Under the pieces are notes generated by a model. The model worked only from the letters and a program-made list of their open reading frames with translations, did not search any database and was not told the origin of the DNA. A program made the position numbers and the translations under genes. DNA of 63,997 nt, filler included, from Candidatus Hydrogenedentota bacterium (GTDB lineage: Bacteria > JBFMHD01), in the NCBI GenBank assembly GCA_040752395.1. It is 7 parts of 7 records of this genome, joined end to end, with 100 filler letters (N's around TTAATTAATTAA, not from the genome) between each part and the next. Parts side by side here need not be neighbours in the genome. Positions count along the whole stretch, not along the records: positions 51,483 to 58,534 come from JBFMHD010000143.1; 6 more parts are not named here. One strand, written 5' to 3'. Position 1 is the stretch's first letter; each line of letters starts with the position of its first letter. Shown piece by piece: positions 1-63,997 of the stretch.

Positions 1-131
1 GATACTTCTCACTTCTTCCGTTATCTTGCATCTTGCTTCTTGCTTCTTTCGTTATCTTTCTTATCCGTTATCTTGCATCTTGCCTCTTGCTTCTACTTGA
101 TATTATTATAGTTACAATGTTTTTCAGAGGA
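1..131 (+). repeat. Modular heptamer-mosaic repeat, 3' part (CTCACTT / CGTTATCTT / TTGCTTC blocks ending GTTTTTCAGAGGAG)
   Basis: Near-identical to 57709-57832, 44004-44080 and 44306-44380. Confidence 0.9.
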
Positions 132-136
132 GATTT

Positions 137-13084: not shown

Positions 13085-13227
13085 CTATCCAACCGCTACC
13101 CTGGTATTGGTGTAGCGGTATGCATAAGTGGAATATAAACTTTATTATAATTTAATTTTAAAATTTATCAAGGGTAATTTTTAAAATTTTGTAATGCCTC
13201 GGTTATTGGTGCGGTAGAATTTACTTA

Positions 13228-13288
13228 AGAGGCAAGAAGTCTGACTCCTGACTCCTAACCCGAATAAATCGGAAAAGAAATATTATCT
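13228..13288 (-). repeat. Short copy of the modular repeat
   Basis: CCCGAATAAATCGGAAAAGAAATATT is the reverse complement of 57440-57466; GACTCCT units. Confidence 0.7.
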
Positions 13289-18240: not shown

Positions 18241-18310
18241 CGGGTCTTGTGACTCTCACTACTTCTTCGGAGTTCGGAGAAGTGTCTCACGTTTCAGGGG
18301 AGCAGTATAT
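18241..18310 (+). repeat. Modular repeat block followed by an IS-like terminal repeat
   Basis: CGGGTCTTGTGAC.CTCACTACTTCTTCGGAGTTCGGAG shared with 24976 and 63766; AAGTGTCTCACGTTTCAGGGGAGCAGTATA is the reverse complement of 60640-60669. Confidence 0.85.
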
Positions 18311-18378
18311 TGTCATTCTCCAGCTTGACCGTGAAATCCAGTAAAAGCGTATGGATTCCCGCTTTCGCGGGAATGACA
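18311..18378. repeat. dRS3/REP-like palindromic element
   Basis: TGTCATTC...GAATGACA ends; internal ATTCCC-N8-GGGAAT; ATCCA/TGGAT pairing. Confidence 0.7.
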
Positions 18379-18421
18379 TAAAAAAATCTACGGTCAGAAA
18401 TTAATGTCCCAATGTATTAGT

Positions 18422-18590
18422 TATGCGGAAGTAAAAACAGGAGTCAGCGGAGCGGTGGTCAAGCATGTTGACGAAACCGGCTGGTTTGAAAAGAATCGGT
18501 TATGCTGATTATGGCCGGCGACGACTAAAACTGCCGTATGCTTTTAAATCCAGGTCTCTCGGAGTCGTAAAGGACTGAGGAGGTTTTTTT
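18422..18590 (+). pseudogene. Degenerate IS66-family transposase fragment
   Basis: Translates YAEVKTGVSGAVVKHVDETGWFEKNRLC*LWPATTKTAVCF*IQVSRSRKGL; HxDETGW...WLW...SRS is the IS66 TnpC pattern; two in-frame stops. Confidence 0.75.
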
Positions 18591-20030: not shown

Positions 20031-20070
20031 AAATATACCTCTCATTAGTAATGAAGATTCAATAAGAATC

Positions 20071-20106
20071 TCCTCTGAAAAACGCTGTAACTCTAATAAT
20101 TCGGGG
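20071..20106 (-). repeat. Isolated terminal module of the modular repeat
   Basis: CTCTGAAAAACGCTGTAACTCTAATAAT identical to 25050-25077. Confidence 0.85.
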
Positions 20107-20209
20107 TACGATAAAGGTCAATAGAGCAGAATCTATCACCGATGTCTTAGATGCAAACCGACGAGGCTGAAAGGGAGTATTCGTAATAGAGGTAATCCAT
20201 CTGGCATTA

Positions 20210-24967: not shown

Positions 24968-25168
24968 CTCTACTACGGGTCTTGTGACCCTCACTACTTC
25001 TTCGGAGTTCGGAGCTCGGAGCTATTATTACGAACTCCTAACTCCTATTCTCTGAAAAACGCTGTAACTCTAATAATCCGGGGTACAGGCTACGGGCTAC
25101 GGACTACAGCCGGCTGGAGCCCGAAGCACGGAGCCTGCTGAAAAGTCTTGAGTCTTGAGTCTTGCTTC
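24968..25168 (-). repeat. Modular heptamer-mosaic repeat
   Basis: GGAGTTC/GGAGCTC, AACTCCT, GGCTACG, CAGCCGGCTG palindrome and GTCTTGA blocks; matches 63757-63940. Confidence 0.92.
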
Positions 25169-26304
25169 TATTTTTTATATATCCAACCTTCGAGCCCTTT
25201 TTCAATTATAAACTCATTAGCTTCTTCTTTTGAATCAAAAAAACCGATCCTTACTCTGTAATAGGTTTCATTTCGAACATTGATAGTTTCTATATAGGAT
25301 TCTATTCCTTTGTTCTTAAGTTCATTTTGTAAATTTTCAGCTTTTATTATTTCTTTAAATGAGCCTATCTGAATTATATACTCACCCTCTTTTCTATCTT
25401 CTGTCTTCTGTCTCCTGTCTTCTAATTTTGAATTTTGAATTTTGAATTTTGAATTTAACTTTGTGCCTTTGTGCCTCTGTGTCTCTGTGCCTTTCCCTCC
25501 TGTCTCCTGTCTCCTGTCTTCTGTATTCTGTATTCTGTATTCTATCTTTTCGTTTTTTAACGCATAAGCTTCAAGCGAGTCAGTATAATTTTTTATCAAA
25601 AAATCTTTAATACCCTCTGCTTCTTTATTTTTACCGAGATTAATATCACAGCGATAGAGTTGTAAATACACCCAGGGTATCCATATAGAATCAGGATATA
25701 ATACAAGATACCTGTGGTAATTAATTCTTGCATTATCATAATCATTGTTTTTATATAAAATATCTGCGAGTGAAAGGATGCCATCCTTAAAAAATCTTCC
25801 ACCCGTATATTTCTTTTCAAGCTCGTTTAAGACATTTATAGCATTAGTATTATCCATTATTCCTATATAGCATAATCCCAGTCTATATAAAGTTTCTTCA
25901 TTAAGTAAAAATTTATCATTCTCTTTATTAAGACTTAATACGTTATTAAAATAGGTTATGGCATTTTGATAATCTTCTTTATAAAAGTAATTCATTCCGA
26001 GTTCAAAATTAGCATAAGCTAATATATGAGATTCTGGATAATTATTTATTATTTCATTAAGATAAGTGATAGATTTACTGATTTTATTCTCAGCCTTAGA
26101 AGCGAGCAGCAGGAAAACGTCTCTATTTTTTAATGCTACTGGTTTTTCCTCTAATATTTCGCGCAATTTGTTTATTGCTTTTTCTTTATTGTTCTCATTT
26201 ATCCATTTCTCAATCTGTTCTATAAGAGCTTCTTCATTTCTGTATGCATTAAGATTATTACAAAATAAAACAAAGACAAACAAAATAAAAACAAATTTTT
26301 TCAT
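25168..26304 (-). CDS. Secreted TPR + SPOR-domain protein with a repeat-derived linker
   Basis: Signal peptide, BamD/CpoB-like TPRs, C-terminal YIIQIGSF...YYRVRIG SPOR domain. Confidence 0.85.
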   Translation of the reverse strand: MKKFVFILFVFVLFCNNLNAYRNEEALIEQIEKWINENNKEKAINKLREILEEKPVALKNRDVFLLLASKAENKISKSITYLNEIINNYPESHILAYANFELGMNYFYKEDYQNAITYFNNVLSLNKENDKFLLNEETLYRLGLCYIGIMDNTNAINVLNELEKKYTGGRFFKDGILSLADILYKNNDYDNARINYHRYLVLYPDSIWIPWVYLQLYRCDINLGKNKEAEGIKDFLIKNYTDSLEAYALKNEKIEYRIQNTEDRRQETGGKGTETQRHKGTKLNSKFKIQNSKLEDRRQKTEDRKEGEYIIQIGSFKEIIKAENLQNELKNKGIESYIETINVRNETYYRVRIGFFDSKEEANEFIIEKGLEGWIYKK

Positions 26305-29440: not shown

Positions 29441-29622
29441 AGAAGCAAGAAGCAAGAAGCAAAAGGCAAAAAGTAGATGATATGTTGGCTTCGGACTTCG
29501 GACTTCAGGCTCCGGGTTCCAGCCGGCTGTAATCCGTAGCCTGTAGCCTGTAGCCTAAAACCAACTTCCTTTAAAAAATTCGGAATTCGGAAGTAATCTT
29601 TGAATCTTTCAATCTTTGAATC
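29441..29622. repeat. Modular heptamer-mosaic repeat at contig start
   Basis: AGAAGCA x3, CTTCGGA/CTTCAGG, CAGCCGGCTG, GTAGCCT x3, AATCTTTG units. Confidence 0.88.
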
Positions 29623-29630
29623 TTTTATCA

Positions 29631-32600
29631 TCATTGTTTTATCACTGCTATTGGTTTAGTTATAATTTGTGTCGATGTTCCTCGAACAATCTCAAGACGG
29701 TAGATATAAAGACCGCTACCCACAAATCTACCTGCATTGTTATCTGCAAACCAGGTTATGTTGTTACCTGAATTCTGATGATATTCAAACGCAAGTTTGC
29801 CAGATAAAGTATGGATGTATAAATGTATAGCTGTTATGGTTGCTGGATTATCAAATGAAAATGTAGTGCCATTTTCCGGTGTTACTGGATTATTTGATAT
29901 ATATACTCTCACAGCAGTAGAGCCAGCTCCCATAAGCGTGAATAAACCTAAATGATTAACTGAAGCTGTTATTATATTATTTATAACATTAACCGAGCTT
30001 ACCTCCTCAATCCATTCATAACCATTATAGTAATATATTTTTAAATCAGCCTCTGCTACTTGATTGCCGTACTGGTCTATTAAATCATTATGGGTATATG
30101 GTATAGCTATGGTTACCGGTCTTTGAAGCTGGATATTAGAAGGGGTGAATTTTCTTGTTACCTTTATTGTTCGCTGTGTGTTATCACTTACCGGCGGGAT
30201 AGAACTAATATCAGGAATAGTTATTGTGACAAGTGTCTGATCAGTAAAAGCGCCAACTGGCGCTGAAATATAGGTACTATCCTGGGCATATAAAGTGCCA
30301 CCAGAAGGCCCGAGATAACCGCTTGCCTCAGGCTTTAGATAATAAATATTTATACTTAAAGTCGTACTATTACCTGCTTCATCACGCGCTATACAAGTTA
30401 AAGTATTTGTACCTGGTTTTAAATCTGCAAGTATGGTGATAGTTTCACCAGGATTACCTCCATAGACCTGACCTGCTACAAGTTCACTTGAAAAAAGAAT
30501 CTCAATAGCATTAGAATCATTTACAATAATATCGAGTTGTACTTTATCACTAAAAACCTGGTTTTGATATTGATACGAGACTGTTTCGGGCGATAAAGTA
30601 ACACTCCCGAATGATGGCGGAAGAGTATCAACAATAATATATACCGAGGCTGAGCCTGTATTACCCGCAATATCTGTAACAGTAAGAGTTATCGTATTCC
30701 CACCATCTCTTATGCCGCTATCAATCCCAACGTAAAAATCAAACGGCTCCACCATCTCGTTCCAGGAACCGTCAAGCGGAGATGCACTCGAGTTCATGTT
30801 TACAAAACTGTTTATCACATTAACATTCATACTGCTAAGATTTACAGCCACATCCTGGGCATAACCTTTAATATTTATATTTGTATAATTTAAAATGCTG
30901 TTATTGGAGGGTGAATTAATGACTACGATAACCTGTGCACGTGCTACCTGGAAATTTACAATGAGTAGATTGCTAAAATTGCCGTATGTATCATTACTGA
31001 TAATGAATAAAGAATGGTTCTCATTTGATAAACCTGAGGTTCTCACAACCGTGGTTCCGAGAGTAATCGAGCCAAAAACAGCTTTTGAGTCAAACCCTGT
31101 ATCCTGACCAGGATATGCATCAATAGTATATTGTATAGTGTCCACAGGGAAAGAATAATCCTCGATTTTAACAACTATTAATAAAGTATCAGTTGCAGGA
31201 TCAGGATTTTTGAGTAACAGAGTTATGGTTCCGCCTGTTTGAAAGACTGTAAAGTTTCTTGAAGCTACATTACTCCAGTTACCAAGAGTGTCCACACCCG
31301 CAACATATAATGTGTGATTGCCCTGTAATAGAGTTCTTACAATAATTTGAGCAGTACCATAAGTGGTGACCCCACTTACTACCCACGTATCGAAAATAAC
31401 AGCCGTGCCCGGATAAGCATCAAGATAGTAATAAATAGTATCTATCGGGAAATCATTATCAGTTATACTCACAATGACAGTTATAGAATCCGGTGCAGGA
31501 TCAGGTGTTAGAGAGATTATAGTCATTGTACCGCCACTCTGTGAGACTGTAAAAGACTGAGTGACTACATTGCTTGTTTCACCCGCGGTATCTACTGCAA
31601 GAGCGTAAAGTGTATGATTACCCTGACTTAGACTCAAAACATTCACTATTGAGGTACCAAAAGTGATGGTGTCTGCTGGAAGAACAGGAACTATTGTATC
31701 AATGCCATACGCGGTGGATGGATAAGCATCTATATAATACAAAATTGTATCAATAGGATAAGAATAATCATAAACCATAAAAACTATTAGAAATGAATCT
31801 GCACTTGGGTCTGGAGTAGGCGGAGTAGAAACAACGATACAGACCCTGTTTTTTAGCTCAACAAAGGTCTTTTGTGAGACAGAATTGCCAGCAGTATCAT
31901 AAACTGTTATATTAACTTGATACACACCATTGGGACGGGAATTAGCAAGACTGATGTAATAAGTTATTGTTCCACCATTATTAACTGCTTGATAAGTATC
32001 CATTGTCTCAGAGAACATTGAATCAAGATTAGAGAAATCACCCTCAATCCGTGCTAAAGCCCCGGTATTCGTAACTGAGATAATCACAGTCTCGCCATTT
32101 CTGTAATTAGCCTGTAGAACAGTTAAGGTTGGTGTATCAGGCGGTGTGTTATCAAGTGCTACAAAAATAATAATACTATCACTGTTAAAAGCAGCATCTC
32201 GTAAAAGTATTATAAGATAATATGTCTCAGCATCAGGATTAGCATTATTCTGCGAAATTTTATAATAAATGGTGCACCCATTTGTGCCCTTGTTTATTAC
32301 AGAATCACCAGGATATAAAGAATCTATGGTCGCTTGTTCTATTGATACTGTAAGCGGACTTGAATCAGACCCGTATGAGATAAAAATACTGATCGTTTCG
32401 CCATCTCTATATATTGTATCAGCATCAAGAATTGTGTAGCCTGTGATATCAGGTGGTGTACTGTCAAACTGAACTATTGCGATCTGCGAATCAATAAGAG
32501 AACCACCATTATAAACAAGCACTTTAATCTGGATATAAGGTGAATCCGAAGCCTGATTTAAATTGCTTATTGTATGTTCATAACAATATACCGCATCGCT

Positions 32601-35600
32601 AGGTCTCGTATCACCGAGACCACCAGTATCACTTAATTGTATAGTATCAGATTTTGTAGTATCGAGATTTACGAATGTGGTTGTATCAATAACAACATAT
32701 AAACCAGGTCCGTAACCATAATATCTAATATAAACGCTATCTCCATTCTTGAACACAGTATCCCCATCACTCCCGATAATAATAAAGCTACTATCAGGAG
32801 TATTTGAATGATATTTAGTATCCCAGCCGATATTTCCAGCTTTATCTGCTATCTGGACTGTTATATAAGGATCTCCTGAAACGCCAGATGGAACATTAAC
32901 AATCGCTGAGTCAACTGTTCCATAAGTATCGCTAATACTATTATAATTTAATGTAGCAGCATTGATACCATCGATCTTAACTGAGACAGGTGACAGATTC
33001 GCGATACCTGATAATGTATCTGAGGCATATATTGACATCGTAACGATTTGACCGGCTGCAACAACTCCTGAAAGACCTGTAATAATAATACGTGGACGAG
33101 TTATATCTACATTCAGAGTTACAGTATCAACACCTGAGATACCACCCTCATCAGTTATGCGAACGCTTACAGAAATAACACCCTCTGTATAAGAACTACT
33201 CGATAGTATCACAACACCGCTACATTGACCTATACCTGTAACACTATCACCTGTATATCTAATCGTATGATAGGTATCATAAGGTATAATTGACCCATTC
33301 CCTGTAACAGTTGCAGATTCACCATTAGGTATGATTGTTTGTGTTCCGTAATCAGTAACTGAACATAAAAACCAGATGGGATAATCAAGCGGTACCCATT
33401 CATTATCAACTGGTGTTAGTATTGTTAAAGTAATCTGATTAGAACTCTGATAGAATATCGTAATAAAAGTATCAGTAATAGGTCCTGTGTTTAATGCGTT
33501 ATCTGCAATCGAATCGGTCTTAATAAGAAAAGTATAAACACCCTGTGTGTCAGTATCCTTCACTCTATATATAGCTCTCCACATCCCGTTACTGCCTGTG
33601 TAATAAATAGTTACAGGTGTTGTATCAATTGCTGAGGTTGTGTCATCTGGGTTTATTGGTTTGATTATTAATATAGTATCTGTGGTATCAGTATTTTCTT
33701 GATTTGTAACAATTTGGCCTGTCTCATAAATATATGTTAATTTAAAATCAAGAATAATCTGGTTTGAGTCAGCAGGTGCAAGATATGAGATAGATGTACT
33801 TAATTGGGATACCACAATTTTTGCTGTGTCTATTTGAACCATATCAAATGGCGGGTTAACAGGGAAAGAATCTACATCATTTGTATTGCCATAAGGGTCT
33901 ATTAAACTATTTGTCTCAATCTGTATGTCATAGCTCGTGGCTTCTGTATCATACCGTGTATAAAGTGGTAATCGAAAAGTACTATCAGTAGCAATAATAG
34001 TTGGATTATATACAATATATGTATAGGTATCTTCTCCACCATTTTTTATTAGTTGTATAGTAATCTGGCTGAGATTAGTAACCGTATCTCCTGTGGGATA
34101 AAATGCGCGGACCCGAACATAAATCGTATCAGTTCGCTGTATCGGTGAATCTTCAACATAAACCGTATCTATCTCAATAGATGCTGTATCAAGCAGTACA
34201 CTATCACTAAAATTAACCCAGGAACTGATAAGAGACGTATCACCTGAGTACGGGAAATAAGGTCGAGAATCTGTTATAGAGAAGGTCTCTATTATAAGTG
34301 CATAATATCCTGAGGTATCAGAGATAGAAGTCGCAAAAGCAAATCTAATCAATGTATCACCAGGCCCGATTGAGGTATCGCCATAACTGAAAATAACAGT
34401 TGTTTCACCTGCACCACCAAGATGGCGCATTATTAGTATCGCTGTATCGATTACACCAAGATAGGTCCCATCAACAAAACGTAAAGCCACACCAACCCAT
34501 ACTGTGTCACCTTTCTCTACACTCTCTGAATCAAAATAGATGTCAGCTATATACCAGCCTGATAAATGTGTTGAATCAGATGAAGTATCTGTGAGGTATA
34601 AAGTACCGTCATACGAATCACTTATTAAATTAGCAGGGAATACAAGGATGAAATAGCCAGGGGAATCAAAACGCGTGGTATTAAAAACTATTATAAAAGT
34701 ATCAGAGTTTGTCCCTGTTTCAAGATAATTATTAGTAGATACTATTTTATAATCAGGTGTATCAGGAACTGGTGTAATCGGCACAAGATATATATAAGCG
34801 GTATCAAGTACTCTGACATTTATATCTGTCCCGCCAGGTGTACCAAGACCATTTGTATCATATCTCGCTTCAAAATATGCATAAACGTCACCCGTGATAC
34901 CAGTATCAAGAGTTATGAATCCTGAATCAAAAATAATAATCGGCACATAAACATAAACACTATCGCTTGAAAAAGTTTGAGTTAGAGGGCCTGTATTAGT
35001 ATTATTGAGTGGTAATCCTGGATAAGTATCAGCTATCGCACCGGTTTCTATAAGTATTCGCCAGTATGAAGTTTTTGTGTCAAGCCAGGTTATAATAAAA
35101 AGAACATAGGTATCGTTATTAATCTGGGTATCCATACCAGTTGGCTGCTGTGGATCAAATGTATGAATAGTTGAATCACCCGGGTTTTGTACGTTCTGTA
35201 GATATACAGTTAAGGTATCTAAATTCAAGACAGGAACAGGTGTTGAATCAGGATACAGAAGCCGCATCGTGACTTTTACAAAATTAGTCTTTATTACTGA
35301 ATCAGCACCTGTGTTAGAATCAGAAAGCGTAATATCAACAGGTATTATATAAGCAGGTAGTATTGTCACAGTGTCCCAACCAAGAGTAAGGGTATCGTTT
35401 TGAGGCCCTTCTGCTACCTTATTACCACCAGGCTCTGATTTGAAGGAATTTGCTCTAATATATAATATATAATCCCCGGTCGGCGTATCAACATCAGTAA
35501 AGAAATAAAAAGTATATACTCCATCAGAGCTTGAAACATCTGTTAAAGATTGTGAATAGATAGTGTCAGATGTTCCTGGTCTTGCAAGCATCAGTGTATA

Positions 35601-36488
35601 TTGAGTTGTTAAAAGCGTAACAGGGTTTTGCTCTGCGTTAACAAGTTTAACTGAAACCGTGATGGTCTCTGTTCTATAGACCTGAGACTGGACTATATTC
35701 ATTGAATCAACATTGATGATTTGTTTCAGGACAGCATCTACTGATTGGCCGTCAATTTTATTACTGCCATTACTATAATCATTAACAGCTGCTTTGTCTC
35801 TACTTAAAGTAATATATCTTGAATCATCATTAATTGTATATCCGAAATCAGCGACAGGCGCTGTTGAGATTTCTTCATCGAGAAATATAATAAGTGCATA
35901 ACCAAGTGTATCAGTTTTTTGCAATCCGCTCAGGCTATCAGTAAGTGTAACAGTACAGCCACCTACTGGTGACCGCTTATTTGCATCAGTGAAACTGCTA
36001 AAACCACGGATATCAAACGCTATGTCTGCAGAAGAATGGTTCAGGATTTGTAAATATTTGGTATCAACAGCTGAAGAAGTAAAATATGCAACAATGGTCC
36101 ATGTCTCTATGCCTGGTAAATCAGATGCATTACCATCAGGCTGAAAATCCTCATCACCGCCACCAATAATCCCGCCTCCTGTGGCACGATAAATTATCGC
36201 TGAATCGCCTTGAATAGTTGTAGTCTCCTCAACGGCCCATCCAGCAGGCGGCGCTATATCACCTGTAAAATCTATACTTCCTGTTTTTGGGGCGATTATA
36301 ACTATTCTTGTACAAGCATTCGTACCATTATTTAGCACATTAATTGATACTAAATTATTGCTATTAACAGGGACGTAGAGTAGACGCGAGTAATTAGTTG
36401 CATCAACACTGATTGTATCCGCAGAATATAGAGGTATTGTTAGCAAAAGGGTTATAGAGATACAGATGAATAGTCTCTTTATACTCAA
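29631..36488 (-). CDS. Giant secreted beta-rich (Ig-like) surface protein with a T9SS-CTD/FlgD-Ig-like C-terminus
   Basis: Signal peptide; recurring D.AGN and D.TPP Ig-like motifs; C-terminal NNPVTP...IHTLSGKL...W.....G..V.SGLYIY...K.IAVIK. Confidence 0.85.
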   Translation of the reverse strand: MSIKRLFICISITLLLTIPLYSADTISVDATNYSRLLYVPVNSNNLVSINVLNNGTNACTRIVIIAPKTGSIDFTGDIAPPAGWAVEETTTIQGDSAIIYRATGGGIIGGGDEDFQPDGNASDLPGIETWTIVAYFTSSAVDTKYLQILNHSSADIAFDIRGFSSFTDANKRSPVGGCTVTLTDSLSGLQKTDTLGYALIIFLDEEISTAPVADFGYTINDDSRYITLSRDKAAVNDYSNGSNKIDGQSVDAVLKQIINVDSMNIVQSQVYRTETITVSVKLVNAEQNPVTLLTTQYTLMLARPGTSDTIYSQSLTDVSSSDGVYTFYFFTDVDTPTGDYILYIRANSFKSEPGGNKVAEGPQNDTLTLGWDTVTILPAYIIPVDITLSDSNTGADSVIKTNFVKVTMRLLYPDSTPVPVLNLDTLTVYLQNVQNPGDSTIHTFDPQQPTGMDTQINNDTYVLFIITWLDTKTSYWRILIETGAIADTYPGLPLNNTNTGPLTQTFSSDSVYVYVPIIIFDSGFITLDTGITGDVYAYFEARYDTNGLGTPGGTDINVRVLDTAYIYLVPITPVPDTPDYKIVSTNNYLETGTNSDTFIIVFNTTRFDSPGYFILVFPANLISDSYDGTLYLTDTSSDSTHLSGWYIADIYFDSESVEKGDTVWVGVALRFVDGTYLGVIDTAILIMRHLGGAGETTVIFSYGDTSIGPGDTLIRFAFATSISDTSGYYALIIETFSITDSRPYFPYSGDTSLISSWVNFSDSVLLDTASIEIDTVYVEDSPIQRTDTIYVRVRAFYPTGDTVTNLSQITIQLIKNGGEDTYTYIVYNPTIIATDSTFRLPLYTRYDTEATSYDIQIETNSLIDPYGNTNDVDSFPVNPPFDMVQIDTAKIVVSQLSTSISYLAPADSNQIILDFKLTYIYETGQIVTNQENTDTTDTILIIKPINPDDTTSAIDTTPVTIYYTGSNGMWRAIYRVKDTDTQGVYTFLIKTDSIADNALNTGPITDTFITIFYQSSNQITLTILTPVDNEWVPLDYPIWFLCSVTDYGTQTIIPNGESATVTGNGSIIPYDTYHTIRYTGDSVTGIGQCSGVVILSSSSYTEGVISVSVRITDEGGISGVDTVTLNVDITRPRIIITGLSGVVAAGQIVTMSIYASDTLSGIANLSPVSVKIDGINAATLNYNSISDTYGTVDSAIVNVPSGVSGDPYITVQIADKAGNIGWDTKYHSNTPDSSFIIIGSDGDTVFKNGDSVYIRYYGYGPGLYVVIDTTTFVNLDTTKSDTIQLSDTGGLGDTRPSDAVYCYEHTISNLNQASDSPYIQIKVLVYNGGSLIDSQIAIVQFDSTPPDITGYTILDADTIYRDGETISIFISYGSDSSPLTVSIEQATIDSLYPGDSVINKGTNGCTIYYKISQNNANPDAETYYLIILLRDAAFNSDSIIIFVALDNTPPDTPTLTVLQANYRNGETVIISVTNTGALARIEGDFSNLDSMFSETMDTYQAVNNGGTITYYISLANSRPNGVYQVNITVYDTAGNSVSQKTFVELKNRVCIVVSTPPTPDPSADSFLIVFMVYDYSYPIDTILYYIDAYPSTAYGIDTIVPVLPADTITFGTSIVNVLSLSQGNHTLYALAVDTAGETSNVVTQSFTVSQSGGTMTIISLTPDPAPDSITVIVSITDNDFPIDTIYYYLDAYPGTAVIFDTWVVSGVTTYGTAQIIVRTLLQGNHTLYVAGVDTLGNWSNVASRNFTVFQTGGTITLLLKNPDPATDTLLIVVKIEDYSFPVDTIQYTIDAYPGQDTGFDSKAVFGSITLGTTVVRTSGLSNENHSLFIISNDTYGNFSNLLIVNFQVARAQVIVVINSPSNNSILNYTNINIKGYAQDVAVNLSSMNVNVINSFVNMNSSASPLDGSWNEMVEPFDFYVGIDSGIRDGGNTITLTVTDIAGNTGSASVYIIVDTLPPSFGSVTLSPETVSYQYQNQVFSDKVQLDIIVNDSNAIEILFSSELVAGQVYGGNPGETITILADLKPGTNTLTCIARDEAGNSTTLSINIYYLKPEASGYLGPSGGTLYAQDSTYISAPVGAFTDQTLVTITIPDISSIPPVSDNTQRTIKVTRKFTPSNIQLQRPVTIAIPYTHNDLIDQYGNQVAEADLKIYYYNGYEWIEEVSSVNVINNIITASVNHLGLFTLMGAGSTAVRVYISNNPVTPENGTTFSFDNPATITAIHLYIHTLSGKLAFEYHQNSGNNITWFADNNAGRFVGSGLYIYRLEIVRGTSTQIITKPIAVIKQ

Positions 36489-41492: not shown

Positions 41493-41707
41493 AATACCAT
41501 TCTCATTTCTTTCTTCTCACTCTCACTTCTTGCTTCTTTCGTTATCTTACTAATAAATAATCCTTGATTTTATATAAATTTTATACTATTCTGTTAACAG
41601 AATTTTTTTATGAACACACAATTAGTCAATTAAGGGTGGGTTAGTGCAGTATTCCGGCTGTAGCCCATAGCCTGGAGCCTGAAAGCCAGCGGTAACTGAG
41701 GGATTAC

Positions 41708-42496
41708 ATGAACACAGATAAAATTTTTGAATTATTAAAAAAATATAAAGAAAATAAATTAACGGATAAAGAATTTGTTAATGAACTTGGATTATTACCT
41801 TACCAAGATATAGGATTTGCCAAGCTTGATATCCATAGAGAAATACGATGTGGTATACCCGAAGCCGTGTACGGTAATCATAAATCTTTGACTGAATTAA
41901 TAAAAATTATAACAAGACTTAAAAAAGAAAAGAAAAGAATCCTTCTGACACGACTCGATTCTTTTAAATATAAAAAATTAAAAAAAAGATTTGCGTTTTT
42001 ATCAGGCATAAAAGCCAATGAGAGAAATATTTTGTATTCTAAGAGCAAAAAAATTATAAATAATTTGCTACCCGTCATAATAACAGCCGGGACATCAGAT
42101 ATACCTGTCGCAAAAGAATGTTCAGCAACCCTGAAAGTTATGGGTTACAACCCTCTTGAAATATTTGACATTGGCGTTGCAGGAATCCATAGATTATTTG
42201 ACAATCTTAATAAAATTCGCATGGGCGATGTTGTAATAGCTGTTGCTGGTATGGACGGTGTTTTGCCTACTATTGTGGCTAACCTTGTGAAAGCACCTGT
42301 TATAGGTGTACCAACTTCCACTGGTTATGGCACGGCATTAAATGGGTTTTCTGCTCTACTTACTATGCTTAATTCTTGCTCAGGTAAATTGGCTGTATGT
42401 AATATTGACAACGGTTTTCAAGCAGGATGTATCGCTATATCGATACTCAACAAGATAGAAGACAGGAGACAGAAGTTAAAAAGATACAAAGATTAA
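41708..42496 (+). CDS. larB: Nickel-pincer cofactor biosynthesis protein LarB (PurE-like)
   Basis: D..RE.RCG.PEAVY, TAGTSD.PVA.E, D.GVAGIHRL, AGMDG.L, VPTS.GYG, NIDNGF. Confidence 0.9.
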   Translation: MNTDKIFELLKKYKENKLTDKEFVNELGLLPYQDIGFAKLDIHREIRCGIPEAVYGNHKSLTELIKIITRLKKEKKRILLTRLDSFKYKKLKKRFAFLSGIKANERNILYSKSKKIINNLLPVIITAGTSDIPVAKECSATLKVMGYNPLEIFDIGVAGIHRLFDNLNKIRMGDVVIAVAGMDGVLPTIVANLVKAPVIGVPTSTGYGTALNGFSALLTMLNSCSGKLAVCNIDNGFQAGCIAISILNKIEDRRQKLKRYKD

Positions 42497-42748
42497 AAGA
42501 TTAAAAGATTGAAATTTTTTCTGATACTTCTCACTTCTCACTTCTTACTTTCAAAGGCACAAAGGATGGAAAACTAAAGATGATATGAAAAGAGTCGTGA
42601 GTCGCAAGTCGTGAGTCAAAACAGGACTCAAGACTCAAGACTCAAGACTTTTCAGCCGGCTCCGAGCTTCGGGCTCCAGCCGGCTGTAGTCCGTAGCCCG
42701 TAGCCTGTAGCCCGAATTATTAGGGTTGCGAAGTTTTTCAGAGGAGGA
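42451..42748 (+). repeat. Modular heptamer-mosaic repeat between larB and arcC
   Basis: AGACAGG, AAAGATT, CTCACTT, AGTCGTG/GACTCAA, CAGCCGGCTG, GTAGCC, terminal GTTTTTCAGAGGAGG. Confidence 0.92.
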
Positions 42749-42754
42749 CCAACT

Positions 42755-43690
42755 ATGAAAATGCTTATAGCTTTGGGCGGAAATGCTATCACTAAAGAAA
42801 CTGAGATAGGCACGATTGAACAACAATGGGCTAATACAGCTCAAACTATGAAGGAAATAGCTAAAGTGGTAGAGCAGGGTCATTCAATAGTTATAACACA
42901 CGGCAATGGTCCCCAAATCGGTAACATTATGAGACGGATTGAGATAGCATCTAAAGAAGTATACCCATTGCCACTTGATGTATGTGTCTCTGATTCCCAG
43001 GGTGGGATGGGTTATATGATTCAGACGCAATTGATGAATGAACTTCGTAAAATAGGAATGAAAGATAAAATCTCAAGTACAATTATAACTACTTGTCTTG
43101 TATCTAAAGATGATCCCGGGATGAAAGAGCCAACAAAACCTATTGGTCCATTTTATACAAAAGAGCAGGCAGAAGAGATAACAAAAACAAGGGGCTGGAT
43201 TATAAAAGAGGATGCTGGCAGAGGTTATAGACGTGTGGTCTTTTCTCCAAAACCTTTGAAGATAGTTGAAAAAGATGCTATCGAAAAATTAATGAACGCT
43301 GGGGTTATTATTATAGCTTGTGGCGGCGGCGGGATCCCGGTAATCGAAGAGAATGGTAGGTACCACGGAATCGACGCGGTTATAGATAAAGATAGGGCTT
43401 CAAGTTTACTTGCAAGAGAGATTAAAATAGACTTATTTGTTATTCTTACAGGTGTTGATAAAGTCGCTATCAATTTTAAAAAACCAGACCAAAAATATCT
43501 TGATAAAATTACATTATCTGAAGCAGAAAGATATTTAAAAGAGGGCCATTTCCCTGCTGGAAGTATGGGTCCTAAAATTGAGGCTTCTATTGATTTTCTA
43601 CAAAACGGCGGTAAAGAAGTGCTTATAACTTCTGCAGAACATCTTCTTTTGGCACTTGATTACAAGACTGGCACACGGATAGTAAAATAG
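42755..43690 (+). CDS. arcC: Carbamate kinase
   Basis: IALGGNA, THGNGPQIG, PTKPIG, GGGGIPV, VIDKD, GSMGPK. Confidence 0.95.
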   Translation: MKMLIALGGNAITKETEIGTIEQQWANTAQTMKEIAKVVEQGHSIVITHGNGPQIGNIMRRIEIASKEVYPLPLDVCVSDSQGGMGYMIQTQLMNELRKIGMKDKISSTIITTCLVSKDDPGMKEPTKPIGPFYTKEQAEEITKTRGWIIKEDAGRGYRRVVFSPKPLKIVEKDAIEKLMNAGVIIIACGGGGIPVIEENGRYHGIDAVIDKDRASSLLAREIKIDLFVILTGVDKVAINFKKPDQKYLDKITLSEAERYLKEGHFPAGSMGPKIEASIDFLQNGGKEVLITSAEHLLLALDYKTGTRIVK

Positions 43691-44080
43691 AAGACAGGAG
43701 ACAGAAGACAGAAGACAGGTAACTCTTGAACTCCTGAACTCATCAACTTTTTCAAAGGATTACTCATGAGCGCGGGTTGCGTTCTACACTATTGGGTTCT
43801 TGGGTTATTGGGTTATTGCGTTTTTGCGTTTTTGCGCTCTACACAACGTATGAAAAACTAAAGATGATATGAAAAGAGTCGTGAGTCGCAAGTCGTGAGT
43901 CAAAACAGGACTCGAGACTCAAGACTCAAGACTCAAGACTTTTCAGCAGGCTTTTGGGCTTTTGTCTCCAGCCGGCTGTAGTCCGTAGCCTGTAGCCTGT
44001 CCTGATACCTCTCACTTCTTCCGTTATCTTGCTTCTTGCTTCTACTTGAAATTATTAGAGTTGCGAAGTTTTTTAGAGGA
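43688..44080 (+). repeat. Long modular repeat copy
   Basis: AGAAGAC, AACTCCT, GGGTTATT, GCGTTTTT, then the core shared with 57527-57832. Confidence 0.92.
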
Positions 44081-44102
44081 TGAATGACTGATGTTTCTTG
44101 AT

Positions 44103-51482: not shown

Positions 51483-51652
51483 AAGTGAGAGGTATCAGGA
51501 CGGGCTACAGGCTACGGACTACAGCCGGCTGGAGCCAAAAGCCAAAAGCCTGCTGAAAAGTCTTGAGTCTTGAGTCTCGAGTCCTGTTTTGACTCACGAC
51601 TCTTTTCATATCATCTTTAGTTTTTCATACGTTGTGTAGAGCGCAACCCGCG
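51483..51652 (-). repeat. Modular repeat copy (minus orientation) overlapping the dedA 3' end
   Basis: Reverse complement of the 57531-57722 core. Confidence 0.92.
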
Positions 51653-57192: not shown

Positions 57193-57439
57193 AATAACGG
57201 CTCTACTCTATCTAAAAAAGAAATATGTTCAATAAAAAAAATTACGGATTCCCCCAACTGATCTTTCCACCCTGGCCAATAGTACCTTACAAATAAAAAC
57301 TTGACATTTTCAGCAAAAATATTTTACCACTGAAACACAGAATTACTGAAACACGGAATATGTTTCTGTATTTCAATAAAATTCAATCCGATAATGCTGG
57401 AATGATCCCCTGTCTGGTGTTTTTTCGATTATTCCGTGG

Positions 57440-57832
57440 TAATATTTCTTTTCCGATTTATTCGGGTCAGGAGTTCGTAATAATAGATACGAGCTCCGAG
57501 CTCCGAACTTTTTCGAAGGAGTCAACATGAGCGCGGTTTGCGCTCTACACAAAGTATGAAAAACTAAAGATGATATGAAAAGAGTCGTGAGTCGCAAGTC
57601 GTGAGTCAAAACAGGACTCGAGACTCAAGACTCAAGACTTTTCAGCAGGCTCCGGGCTTTTTGCTCCAGCCGGCTGTAGTCCGTAGCCTGTAGCCTGTAG
57701 CCCGTCCTGATACCTCTCACTTCTTCCGTTATCTTGCTTCTTGCCTCTTGCTTCTTTCGTTATCTTTCTTTCCGTTATCTTGCTTCTTGCCTCTATTTGA
57801 TATTATTAGAGTTACAACGTTTTTCAGAGGAG
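57440..57832 (+). repeat. Most complete modular repeat copy, ending in the SD of the antitoxin gene
   Basis: GAGCTCC, AGTCGTG/GACTCAA hairpin, CAGCCGGCTG, GTAGCCT, TTGCTTC blocks; terminal GTTTTTCAGAGGAGG. Confidence 0.93.
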
Positions 57833-57841
57833 GTAAAGAAG

Positions 57842-58048
57842 ATGACTATTCAAGCAGAATATCTTATTGATGAAAAAGGAGAGAAAAAATCCATAGTTTT
57901 ATCTATTAAGGATTATCTTAGATTGATGGAGTATCTTGATGATTTAGAGGATGCAGTAGATTTAAAAAAAGCAAAAGACCATCCCAAAGGGTTTATTGAG
58001 TTTGAGAATCTTGCCAGGCAGCTTAAAAGACAGGGTAGAATTCATTAA
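57842..58048 (+). CDS. Putative antitoxin paired with RelE
   Basis: ATG 57842; Y..DEKGEKKS.VL...Y..LME.L.DLED pattern; immediately upstream of relE. Confidence 0.7.
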   Translation: MTIQAEYLIDEKGEKKSIVLSIKDYLRLMEYLDDLEDAVDLKKAKDHPKGFIEFENLARQLKRQGRIH

Positions 58049-58050
58049 TT

Positions 58051-58302
58051 ATGTATCGTATCATTATTGAACGCCGGGCAGTTAGGGAGATCGAGTCTTT
58101 GCCCAATGAAATAATTCAAGACGTAATAGACGCAATTAAAAGTTTGAAGTCTAATCCGAGACCACATGGTGTCAAAAAATTAATTGAAGTGGACGGTTGG
58201 CGTATCAGAGTTAGAGACTATCGTGTACTTTACTTGATAGATGATGACAAAAGAGTGATCAGTATTTATAGGGTAAAGCATCGTTGTAAAGTATATAGAT
58301 AA
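58051..58302 (+). CDS. relE: RelE/ParE-family toxin
   Basis: L..NPRP.G.KKL....WRIRV.DYRVLY.IDD...HR..VY. Confidence 0.85.
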   Translation: MYRIIIERRAVREIESLPNEIIQDVIDAIKSLKSNPRPHGVKKLIEVDGWRIRVRDYRVLYLIDDDKRVISIYRVKHRCKVYR

Positions 58303-63683: not shown

Positions 63684-63997
63684 TGTAATGCTCCCCCTTT
63701 TTGATACACTTTAATTTTTCTACCATTAGGCACTAAAGCAAATTGCAAATTTATTCCCCCTACTACGGGTCTTGTGACCCTCACTACTTCGAAAAACTTC
63801 GCAACTCTAATAATTCGGGCTACAGGCTACGGGCTACGGACTACAGCCGGCTGGAGCCAAAAGCCCGGAGTCTCCTTCGAAAAAGTTCGGAGTTCGGAGC
63901 TCGGAGCTCGTATCTATTATTACGAACTCCTAACTCCTATCTTTTTCATCCTTTGTGCCTTTGTGCCTCTTTTCCTCCCCTTTAAAGTGTCTCACGT
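63684..63997. mobile_element. Candidate MITE: IS3-like terminal inverted repeats enclosing modular repeat DNA (right end cut by the window)
   Basis: Left TGTAATGCTCCCCCTTTTTGATACACTTTAA; right TTAAAGTGTCTCACGT, which continues as TTCAGGGGAGCAGTATA in the copies at 18280 and 60640. Confidence 0.5.

Follow-up and report, generated by a model that had tools for sequence, protein, structure and literature searches.

The focal copy and other copies in the window

Positions 57440–57832 of the window, a stretch of 63,997 nt in which 7 contigs of one metagenome-assembled genome (MAG) are joined by 100-nt spacers, hold one copy of a mosaic repeat made of short tandem arrays of 7/8-nt units and fixed linkers, designated here by letters as modules (Table 1). 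A RelB-like/ParE gene pair lies downstream, and the Shine-Dalgarno (SD) motif of its first gene comes from the mosaic. The predicted fold of the copy contains three arm-pair hairpins in addition to the J hairpin (z = −3.62, 0/100 shuffles as good). The AGTCGTG and GACTCAA blocks, proposed in the initial annotation to face each other as a hairpin, pair in both the MFE and the centroid folds. The spacing between these two modules, C and D, varies mainly by 7-nt steps, and the E-F-F2 block occurs inverted in other copies. Promoter-like sites, counted in the focal copy only, are at chance level (2 vs 1.6 expected), and in Rfam, which had been suggested for a search, the window has no match. A further non-tandem repeated segment is located 5' of the focal copy (57279–57463) and has a second occurrence on contig C290.

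Modules J, Q, R, B and I0-I do not consist of tandem arms and may derive from other sources. The minus strand of J starts with GTAG, a feature which we take to be REP-like. Module Q, found in only 26 among 848 loci of the genome, has a sharp end in these 26 copies and presumably resembles the end of an IS. The ATG-containing stretch of linker B appears to resemble the first codons of one of the four-helix-bundle (4HB) genes of the genome, located on contig C92.

Eighteen of the 19 sites at which related DNA had initially been placed in the window fall within repeat loci defined by repeated 16-mers, and the 19th, at 41654, is a visibly degenerate copy of the GTAGCCT type; 7 of the 19 are truncated by contig ends. 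One copy is situated inside a TPR-SPOR gene (25168–26304, minus strand), where O, A and N arrays encode part of the linker of the protein, over ~50 codons in frame. Eleven other in-ORF cases are present in the genome, some of which are probably start-site miscalls. A palindrome adjoining the Q block (18312–18395) presumably resembles dRS3-like/GIY-YIG-flanking hairpins, and the region 5' of hisD (18430–18585) gives the impression, by its sequence, of a decayed transposase fragment. Mosaics are also present on both sides of a gene for a 2285-aa protein with Ig-like (Big_13) repeats (29631–36488, minus strand).

Table 1. Modules of the focal copy, its neighbouring genes and the other copies, in positions of the window
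Position	Strand	Feature	Remark
57464–57482	+	L1, left arm of gene-less arm pair, AGGAGTT-type heptamers	pairs with L2 in fold
57489–57513	+	L2, right arm, CGAGCTC/CGAACTC heptamers, then T run	seen in fold
57526–57550	+	J, short GC hairpin, 120 copies	seen in fold
57551–57579	+	B linker: end of GGCACAAA unit and ATG-containing stretch	
57580–57609	+	C, left arm AGTCGTG	unit and polarity as 5' of C284 4HB gene
57615–57643	+	D, right arm GACTCAA	as 3' of C284 4HB gene
57647–57704	+	E, palindrome (57667–57676), F2	gene-less arm pair round perfect 10-nt palindrome
57707–57726	+	G, right-type arm CTCACTT	
57728–57796	+	H ×2, right arm TCTTGCT	as 3' of intact C347 4HB gene
57797–57833	+	I0-I, fixed 3' block with terminal SD motif	8 nt 5' of ATG at 57842
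57842–58300	+	RelB-like antitoxin (under Pfam cut-off) and ParE toxin genes	neighbours outside the repeat
1–135	+	H-I0-I before fumarate hydratase alpha	truncated by contig start
981–1005	−	lone H arm between fumarase alpha and beta genes	left-arm orientation
13202–13285	.	short related segment	no anchor module
18241–18311	−	R-like hairpin, short array and Q block	Q IS-end-like
20066–20109	−	I (SD) block before hisD	
24969–25164	−	D-F-F2-I-L1-R before mutS	
25397–25548	−	O-A-N-O left-type arms	in frame inside TPR-SPOR gene
29441–29625	+	copy truncated by contig start	
36576–36771	+	M-G-A-C-D-E-F	truncated by contig end
41509–41690	+	G/H-type segment (41525–41550) and degenerate F-F2 copy (~41654–41690)	before larB
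42455–42748	+	complete copy O-M-G-B-C-D-F-F2-I	between larB and carbamate kinase
43687–44102	+	O-V-J-K-B-C-D-E-F-F2-G-H-I0-I	at contig end
44203–44412	+	C-D-F-F2-G-H	truncated by contig start
45806–45964	+	A-M-H copy	
51483–51652	−	B-C-D-E-F-F2-G	truncated by contig start
60639–60756	+	Q-A-N-O before murC	
63738–63997	−	A-L1-L2-F-F2-R	truncated by contig end

Extent of the repeat family

The MAG (2.84 Mb in 349 contigs, 34.8% GC, 93.8% complete) has only the rank of domain in common with its sampled GTDB relatives. Repeat loci were defined genome-wide by 16-mers occurring at least 5 times, which gives 1077 loci covering 151 kb. At least one of 24 anchor modules is present in 848 of these (134 kb, 4.7% of the MAG), and the remaining 229, which are without an anchor module, are excluded from the module counts. 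A k-mer analysis of the whole genome had been proposed at the outset as a check. The observation is confirmed as real, and the family is far bigger than the window shows.

Comparison with the shuffled genome reveals an excess for 12 of the 13 initially named units, which is strong for 10 of them; TTGCTTC occurs 445 times (vs 1) and AGTCGTG 337 times (vs 0), and the excess is weaker for ATTCAAA (20 vs 6) and CTCACTT (14 vs 2). As a 7-mer, AAAGATT shows no enrichment (19 vs 14); it is instead an 8-mer unit. Tandem runs of period 7 and period 8 number 1132 and 324 (19 and 8 after shuffling), those of period 6 number 222 (vs 93), and periods 5 and 9–11 are near background. Cyanobacterial STRR elements are heptamer repeats, and the STRR-like feature of intergenic period-7 arrays well over chance is present here, with only 12 of the 848 loci located entirely within ORFs. 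The linker palindrome is perfect, as had been described, and is found in 289 copies (vs 1 after shuffling), and the 30-nt linker has 51 exact occurrences. The focal DNA has no match among 40 other genomes searched, no instance of a 25-nt core pattern was found in metagenome contigs, and a MutS search for close relatives returned distant ones only, with 39–53% identity.

Order, polarity and ends of the modules

The modules follow the master order Q A M N O L1 L2 J K B C D E F F2 G H I0 I. The initial suggestion that local order is kept agrees with the neighbour pairs, 2631 of which obey this order and 160 of which break it (2791 in total), counts that rest on the same data from which the order was derived. 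Copies vary by the skipping of modules and by unit number. As a result of this variation, the 460 loci with at least 4 modules display 353 distinct module strings, and 305 of the 460 loci have a string that occurs nowhere else. The polarity of the composite is along the downstream gene, with sense to antisense ratios of 204:4 for I, 87:3 for C and 72:2 for K; the module mosaic had been noticed correctly before, and this polarity and the SD-bearing 3' end had been overlooked. The 5' ends are ragged (168 distinct 10-mers among 215 loci). No excess of target-site duplications is observed at these 215 loci, where matches between the flanks equal those of shuffled pairs.

Four-helix-bundle cassettes of the genome

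The genome has five 4HB genes (PF05635/TIGR02436), all of which carry heptamer or octamer arm arrays. The four-helix bundle had been one of several candidate partners of the repeat named initially and turned out to be the right one. Arms of type H are found at C347, C/D at C284 and A at C92:3632, whereas the gene at C92:6 has a K-like left arm only, at a contig end, and the gene at C146 has a fifth arm type outside the common mosaic units. Both arms are present at four of the five genes, the fifth being truncated by the contig end, and abundant mosaic units are carried by four of the five. The polarity of the arms round these genes is the same as in the mosaics. Left arms lie close behind the upstream gene and right arms precede the start of the next gene; all five cassettes are located between protein genes and none in the 23S rRNA gene.

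The five 4HB genes form a decay series, in which two are intact, two are internally deleted and one is shortened and fused to its right arm. C347 is the only intact gene that matches a common unit, the C/D, A and K counterparts being broken. The gene-less stage is seen in the mosaics, where C and D are neighbours 223 times, in addition to the L1/L2 and E/F2 pairs, and gene-less composites outnumber cassettes more than 100-fold. The orientation H-left…H-right is present at 14 loci, 8 of which enclose sense-oriented modules or represent a bare pair. The C347 protein is a member of TIGR02436, and the family alignment matches PDB 2GSC and 2RLD. The arms of its cassette pair in the fold, the whole of which is not significant (z = −1.58, 9/100 shuffles).

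Of the five 4HB genes, a genome-wide scan for inverted flanks recovered only two, C284 and C146. Overall, the inverted-flank score was passed by 23 of 2227 genes. Several of these belong to the host and have the cassette layout reversed, the H right arm standing before the gene and the H left arm after it, so that no second cargo family emerges. A search for further 4HB remnants in the genome gave none at E up to 1.

Four-helix-bundle cassettes in other genomes

The foreign set consists of 145 distinct 4HB genes, after 5 of 150 ORFs had been dropped as duplicates or too near an edge; relatives of a single protein are abundant in it, and its counts are therefore not independent. Inverted flanks (score of at least 11) are present at 109 of these 145 genes, at 1 of 111 distant control ORFs and in 40 of 600 mismatched pairs. 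Most of the arrays have period 7 or 8; they lie upstream at 91 genes and downstream at 76, left arms have G>C in 101 of 109, and 86 of 132 genes are situated between co-oriented genes. As a descriptive count in this kin set, H-type arms become rarer as identity to the C347 protein drops (16/29, 11/45, 5/71). Stacking is rare, with two arm families at 13 of the 145 genes and three at none. In one genome, G039, filled, decayed and emptied O-type cassettes lie within 4.4 kb, and the emptied one retains the last codons of the gene, followed by a second arm family. Four further cassettes (L021, L024, L028 and L134) show 9-mer arms, duplicated right arms or the arms of a neighbouring cassette, which suggests that cassettes may be arranged in arrays.

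Exact matching of mosaic units to foreign arms is at chance level (12/30 vs 5–14 for shuffled units). Because of this, it is layout and polarity that point to a cassette origin for M, N, L1/L2, E/F2 and S.

Gene junctions and the Shine-Dalgarno block

Mosaics occupy 403 of 1724 co-oriented, 62 of 166 divergent and 22 of 183 convergent junctions, and the median gap between co-oriented genes is 228 nt where occupied vs 18 nt elsewhere. The genes next to copies are mutually unrelated. Genes of toxin-antitoxin size, another of the partners proposed initially, are not enriched downstream of copies (18% under 120 aa vs 13–24%).

The I block, which bears the SD motif, is present in 405 copies, 280 of which have a gene start within 40 nt. 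Since the gene caller rewards SD motifs, the raw ATG count serves as independent evidence; in 398 flanks it is 18–78 per offset at 4–12 nt after the block and 3–10 beyond. The ATG is outside the block and its spacing is variable. With our own gene calls, repeats account for 267 of the 1060 strong SD motifs of the genome, about a quarter, and the block plausibly serves ~270 genes. The complementarity of the I-block SD is our assumption from general knowledge, and a 10-nt anti-SD search gave a single match, at a non-rRNA-looking site. At mosaic junctions without an I block the SD rate is 46% vs 33–43%, which is not clearly higher, and the test for selection for stronger SD motifs at such junctions is null. 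Genome-wide, 71 called stops fall within repeat loci by 6 nt or more, so that repeats also supply some gene ends.

Recombination and spread

Non-tandem linkers of 23–30 nt are near-identical in hundreds of loci, and B is within 2 mismatches in 188 of 204. Near-identity of such unique linkers across loci implies that DNA has been copied between loci. Linkage inside the 36-nt 3' block, analysed in 308 of 404 copies (the 96 with more than 7 mismatches were left out), falls with distance, D' being 0.82–1.0 at up to 7 nt, 0.58–0.86 at 8–14 nt and 0.52–0.62 at 16–21 nt. This decay indicates recombination, rather than recurrent mutation. Across the composite, normalised excess mutual information is at most 0.07 for 51 of 53 site pairs, and the linked exceptions are a shared deletion and two sites ~10 nt apart. 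Copying has not taken place as clonal blocks; alleles recombine among copies. The initial description as a recombining non-coding mosaic is thereby borne out, with linkage decaying inside one module and near zero between modules. However, linkage decay alone names no mechanism, and template switching by a reverse transcriptase (RT) would give the same.

The family had further been called actively spreading. Spread as such, rather than present activity, is supported indirectly by the high identity among hundreds of copies and by an in-frame 24-nt expansion. The expansion is located in a HATPase gene just 5' of the C92 A-type cassette, where three extra A units (3×8 nt) add 8 residues that are absent from 117 of 119 homologues. 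Such an expansion hints that an array can be seeded where a sequence fits a unit by chance. In this HATPase_c protein (L012:691–1179 = C92:3790–4278) the expansion lies near the G-x-G motif, and the C-terminus extends into the left arm of the cassette next to it.

The other proteins proposed as partners find no counterpart: a RAYT is not indicated by any Y1_Tnp match in the 93.8% complete genome, an IS3 transposase by any rve match, and a search of the genome for GxxExxY found none. Likewise, RVT_1 has 0 matches in the 93.8% complete genome. Since alleles recombine and none of RAYT, RT, rve and GxxExxY was found, short-tract ectopic recombination primed at arms is favoured. GIY-YIG has one match, in a 617-aa frame, and is not a small stand-alone nuclease. 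DDE_Tnp_1 has three matches, two of them without a mosaic module and the third near one Q block. A 95-bp MITE with ~17-bp terminal inverted repeats is present at C1:38498–38592 and in 11 more paired copies (41 end matches), with no cognate transposase found for it, and a 58-bp MITE is inserted at the same mosaic point, just before linker B, at C313:12373–12430 and C113:17492–17549, with an apparent short duplication.

Proposed origin and alternative explanations

The explanation that we favour, with a probability a little above even, is that the composites are stacked arms of 4HB cassettes, homogenised by short-tract ectopic recombination between loci. In the pattern seen at the genes described above, a cassette consists of a G-rich left 7/8-mer array, the gene and an inverted right array, with a unit specific to the protein clade, and it lies on the sense strand after a stop codon and before the ribosome-binding site of the gene that follows. 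Internal deletion may remove the gene and leave an empty left and right pair or orphan arms; the stages are observed, and their order is our proposal. Arms of many families, together with a few REP-like hairpins and IS/MITE ends, might then gather at similar junctions and be stitched into the master order as orphan left arms, empty pairs, orphan right arms and finally a captured SD spacer. Copies exchange short tracts, by the recombination observed, and an existing arm or a chance unit match would serve as the landing pad. Such landing pads could let modules spread, skip and shuffle without a transposase, and slippage would set the unit number. The terminal block, possibly the ribosome-binding site at ~1 in 9 genes by now, may help to fix the 3' end.

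A tentative extension, which we regard as rather unlikely, is that 4HB proteins are the trans factor of an unrecognised mobile class with a clade-specific 7/8-mer, RNA-level targeting of stop-to-SD junctions and copy-in of arms at cognate seeds by short homology. In this lineage a non-autonomous composite would then have hijacked this machinery and rewritten ~1 in 9 translation starts.

An RNA route is a doubtful alternative, in which mosaic mRNA would be cut at stems and copied back by an RT acting in trans, with a 4HB protein as an Avd-like cofactor and template switching between copies. The strict sense polarity, the fixed 3' end and the ragged 5' end would fit such a route. The C347 protein is above the Pfam bAvd cut-off (43.3 vs 40), and an RNase III gene is present, an enzyme that cuts a related element according to the accessible text of PMC4990558. 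However, the same protein is under the cut-off of the NCBIfam Avd model (42.7 vs 80), and the missing RVT_1 match, the lack of excess target-site duplications and the inverted E-F-F2 blocks argue against it.

Domesticated regulation seems quite unlikely as the origin. Leader arrays would here bind host 4HB or other RNA-binding proteins and tune translation or RNA stability, and selection would drive their spread. The location of arrays in leaders, on the sense strand and beside the SD block, and the fact that arm type follows protein clade, are in line with this, and a translational role has been suggested for TAACTGA repeats in the accessible text of PMC4679880. However, clade tracking is expected from co-inheritance too, C347 is the single intact 4HB gene that fits a common unit, the neighbouring genes are unrelated and most multi-module loci have a unique string. 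The regulatory reading is compatible with an origin from cassette arms and does not exclude it.

We consider it very unlikely that a transposase has mobilised a family of REP/BIME or MITE type. The presumed likeness of J to a GTAG REP and of the sharp-ended Q to an IS end, the true MITEs in and near mosaics and the existing DDE transposase genes could be cited for this. On the other side stand the lack of Y1_Tnp/RAYT and rve matches, of terminal inverted repeats and of excess target-site duplications. Convergent junctions are the least occupied, Q is restricted to few loci and alleles are unlinked.

It is very improbable that the assembly has produced the variable arrangements by chimerism from a small number of real copies, even with a fragmented MAG in which 240 of the 848 loci lie at contig ends. 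Of the 608 internal loci, 535 have no exact 99-mer in common with another locus, and by a length of 141 nt hardly any exact repeats are left (2 loci), a pattern expected of an assembler that breaks at longer repeats and does not guess. All four allele combinations are present at sites 12–21 nt apart, a finding which together with the unshared 99-mers makes chimerism unlikely as a general cause. In-ORF copies stay in frame and ATG is enriched shortly after the SD block, which also speaks against chimeras. Judged on these data, mis-assembly is an unlikely general cause, although errors may occur at individual loci. Independent slippage at each junction without copying between loci is hardly credible, since, although unit number varies mainly by exact 7-nt steps and some alleles are unit variants that could recur, the near-identical linkers largely refute it, loci repeatedly have the same skip junctions (F2 to I 110 times) and both mutS and mutL are intact.

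Bacterial heptamer repeats have been known for decades without an origin, and S23p/4HB proteins without a function. The genome holds, in extreme copy number, the full series from intact armed cassette to gene-less composite, which ties these two puzzles together, and the C347 protein and the H arm can be named as a testable pair. Hundreds of dispersed intergenic loci behave as one recombining pool at the 20-nt scale and contribute about a quarter of the strong SD motifs of their genome.

Comparison with known systems

The claim of an undescribed system made in the initial annotation is too strong, because paired heptamers (PMC4692102, PMC2700814), heptamers next to S23p (PMC4990558) and repeats carrying ribosome-binding sites (PMC3184786) are published, as the accessible text of these papers shows. 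A single described element that would cover the family end to end did not emerge; the family departs from REP/BIME, MITE, REP2 and IVS in some of the features tested for each and is not one element with defined ends. In our literature search, which covered few subscription journals, neither a class of heptamer-armed 4HB cassettes nor such a composite was found described.

The closest relative of the cassettes is the IVS in the 23S rRNA of Coxiella burnetii, which according to the accessible text has AGAAGA and then GACAGAT heptamers in variable number just 5' of the S23p ORF, terminal inverted repeats, an ORF decaying by deletion and cutting by RNase III (PMC4990558). Its heptamer unit is close to module O. 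However, the IVS is one element in rRNA, whereas the cassettes here are intergenic between protein genes and have many unit families; and RNase III cutting, shown for the IVS, has as a possible counterpart here the RNase III gene and the pairing of arms in folds.

Paired heptamer families include GGGAATC of Xanthomonas (PMC4692102), the octa- and heptanucleotide sites of Geobacter metallireducens, beside which IS elements insert (PMC2700814), and the TAACTGA repeats of Beggiatoaceae, mostly without SD (PMC4679880). These are alike in being intergenic 7/8-nt arrays, often in inverted pairs, near start codons and with 7-nt indels. The published systems comprise one to four separate families with tens to a few hundred sites, and the accessible text of the three papers describes no fused order of a dozen families, SD end or 4HB link. 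S23 and four-helix terms are absent from the 12 of 19 Geobacter supplementary files covered and from Table S4; the annotation dates from 2009, and genes of this kind may be listed there as hypothetical. The array of the ART preprint is, by its accessible text, a different thing and is RT-linked.

REP2 of Neisseria (~25 copies of 120–150 bp, with promoter and ATG) and IR-A/IR-B of Borrelia are comparable in lacking terminal inverted repeats, in their internal hairpins and in placing a ribosome-binding site directly 5' of unrelated genes, according to the accessible text of PMC3184786. The family described here has the constant SD-bearing end shortly before unrelated start codons in common with REP2. 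In contrast to REP2, it has 405 SD blocks, an ATG outside the element at variable spacing and a body of tandem arms, and promoter-like sites in the focal copy are at chance level. With REP/BIME it shares mosaic intergenic clusters, an ordered layout and the attraction of IS/MITE insertions, as far as the accessible text of PMC3733652 and PMC3184786 goes. However, it consists mainly of tandem arrays and not of palindromes, and is polarised to gene starts and not ends, and no RAYT was found. Only module J resembles a palindrome of GTAG/CGTC type, and the siting of REP/BIME on the 3' side of genes and at convergent junctions is not matched. Neither the terminal inverted repeats of MITEs nor an excess of target-site duplications was found, the 5' ends being ragged, and the RVT_1 match of DGRs and retroelements was not found either. 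We would place the family among composite remnants of armed 4HB cassettes, as a relative of the published paired heptamers, with a 3' end that would work like that of REP2 and a layout that appears to be like that of BIMEs.
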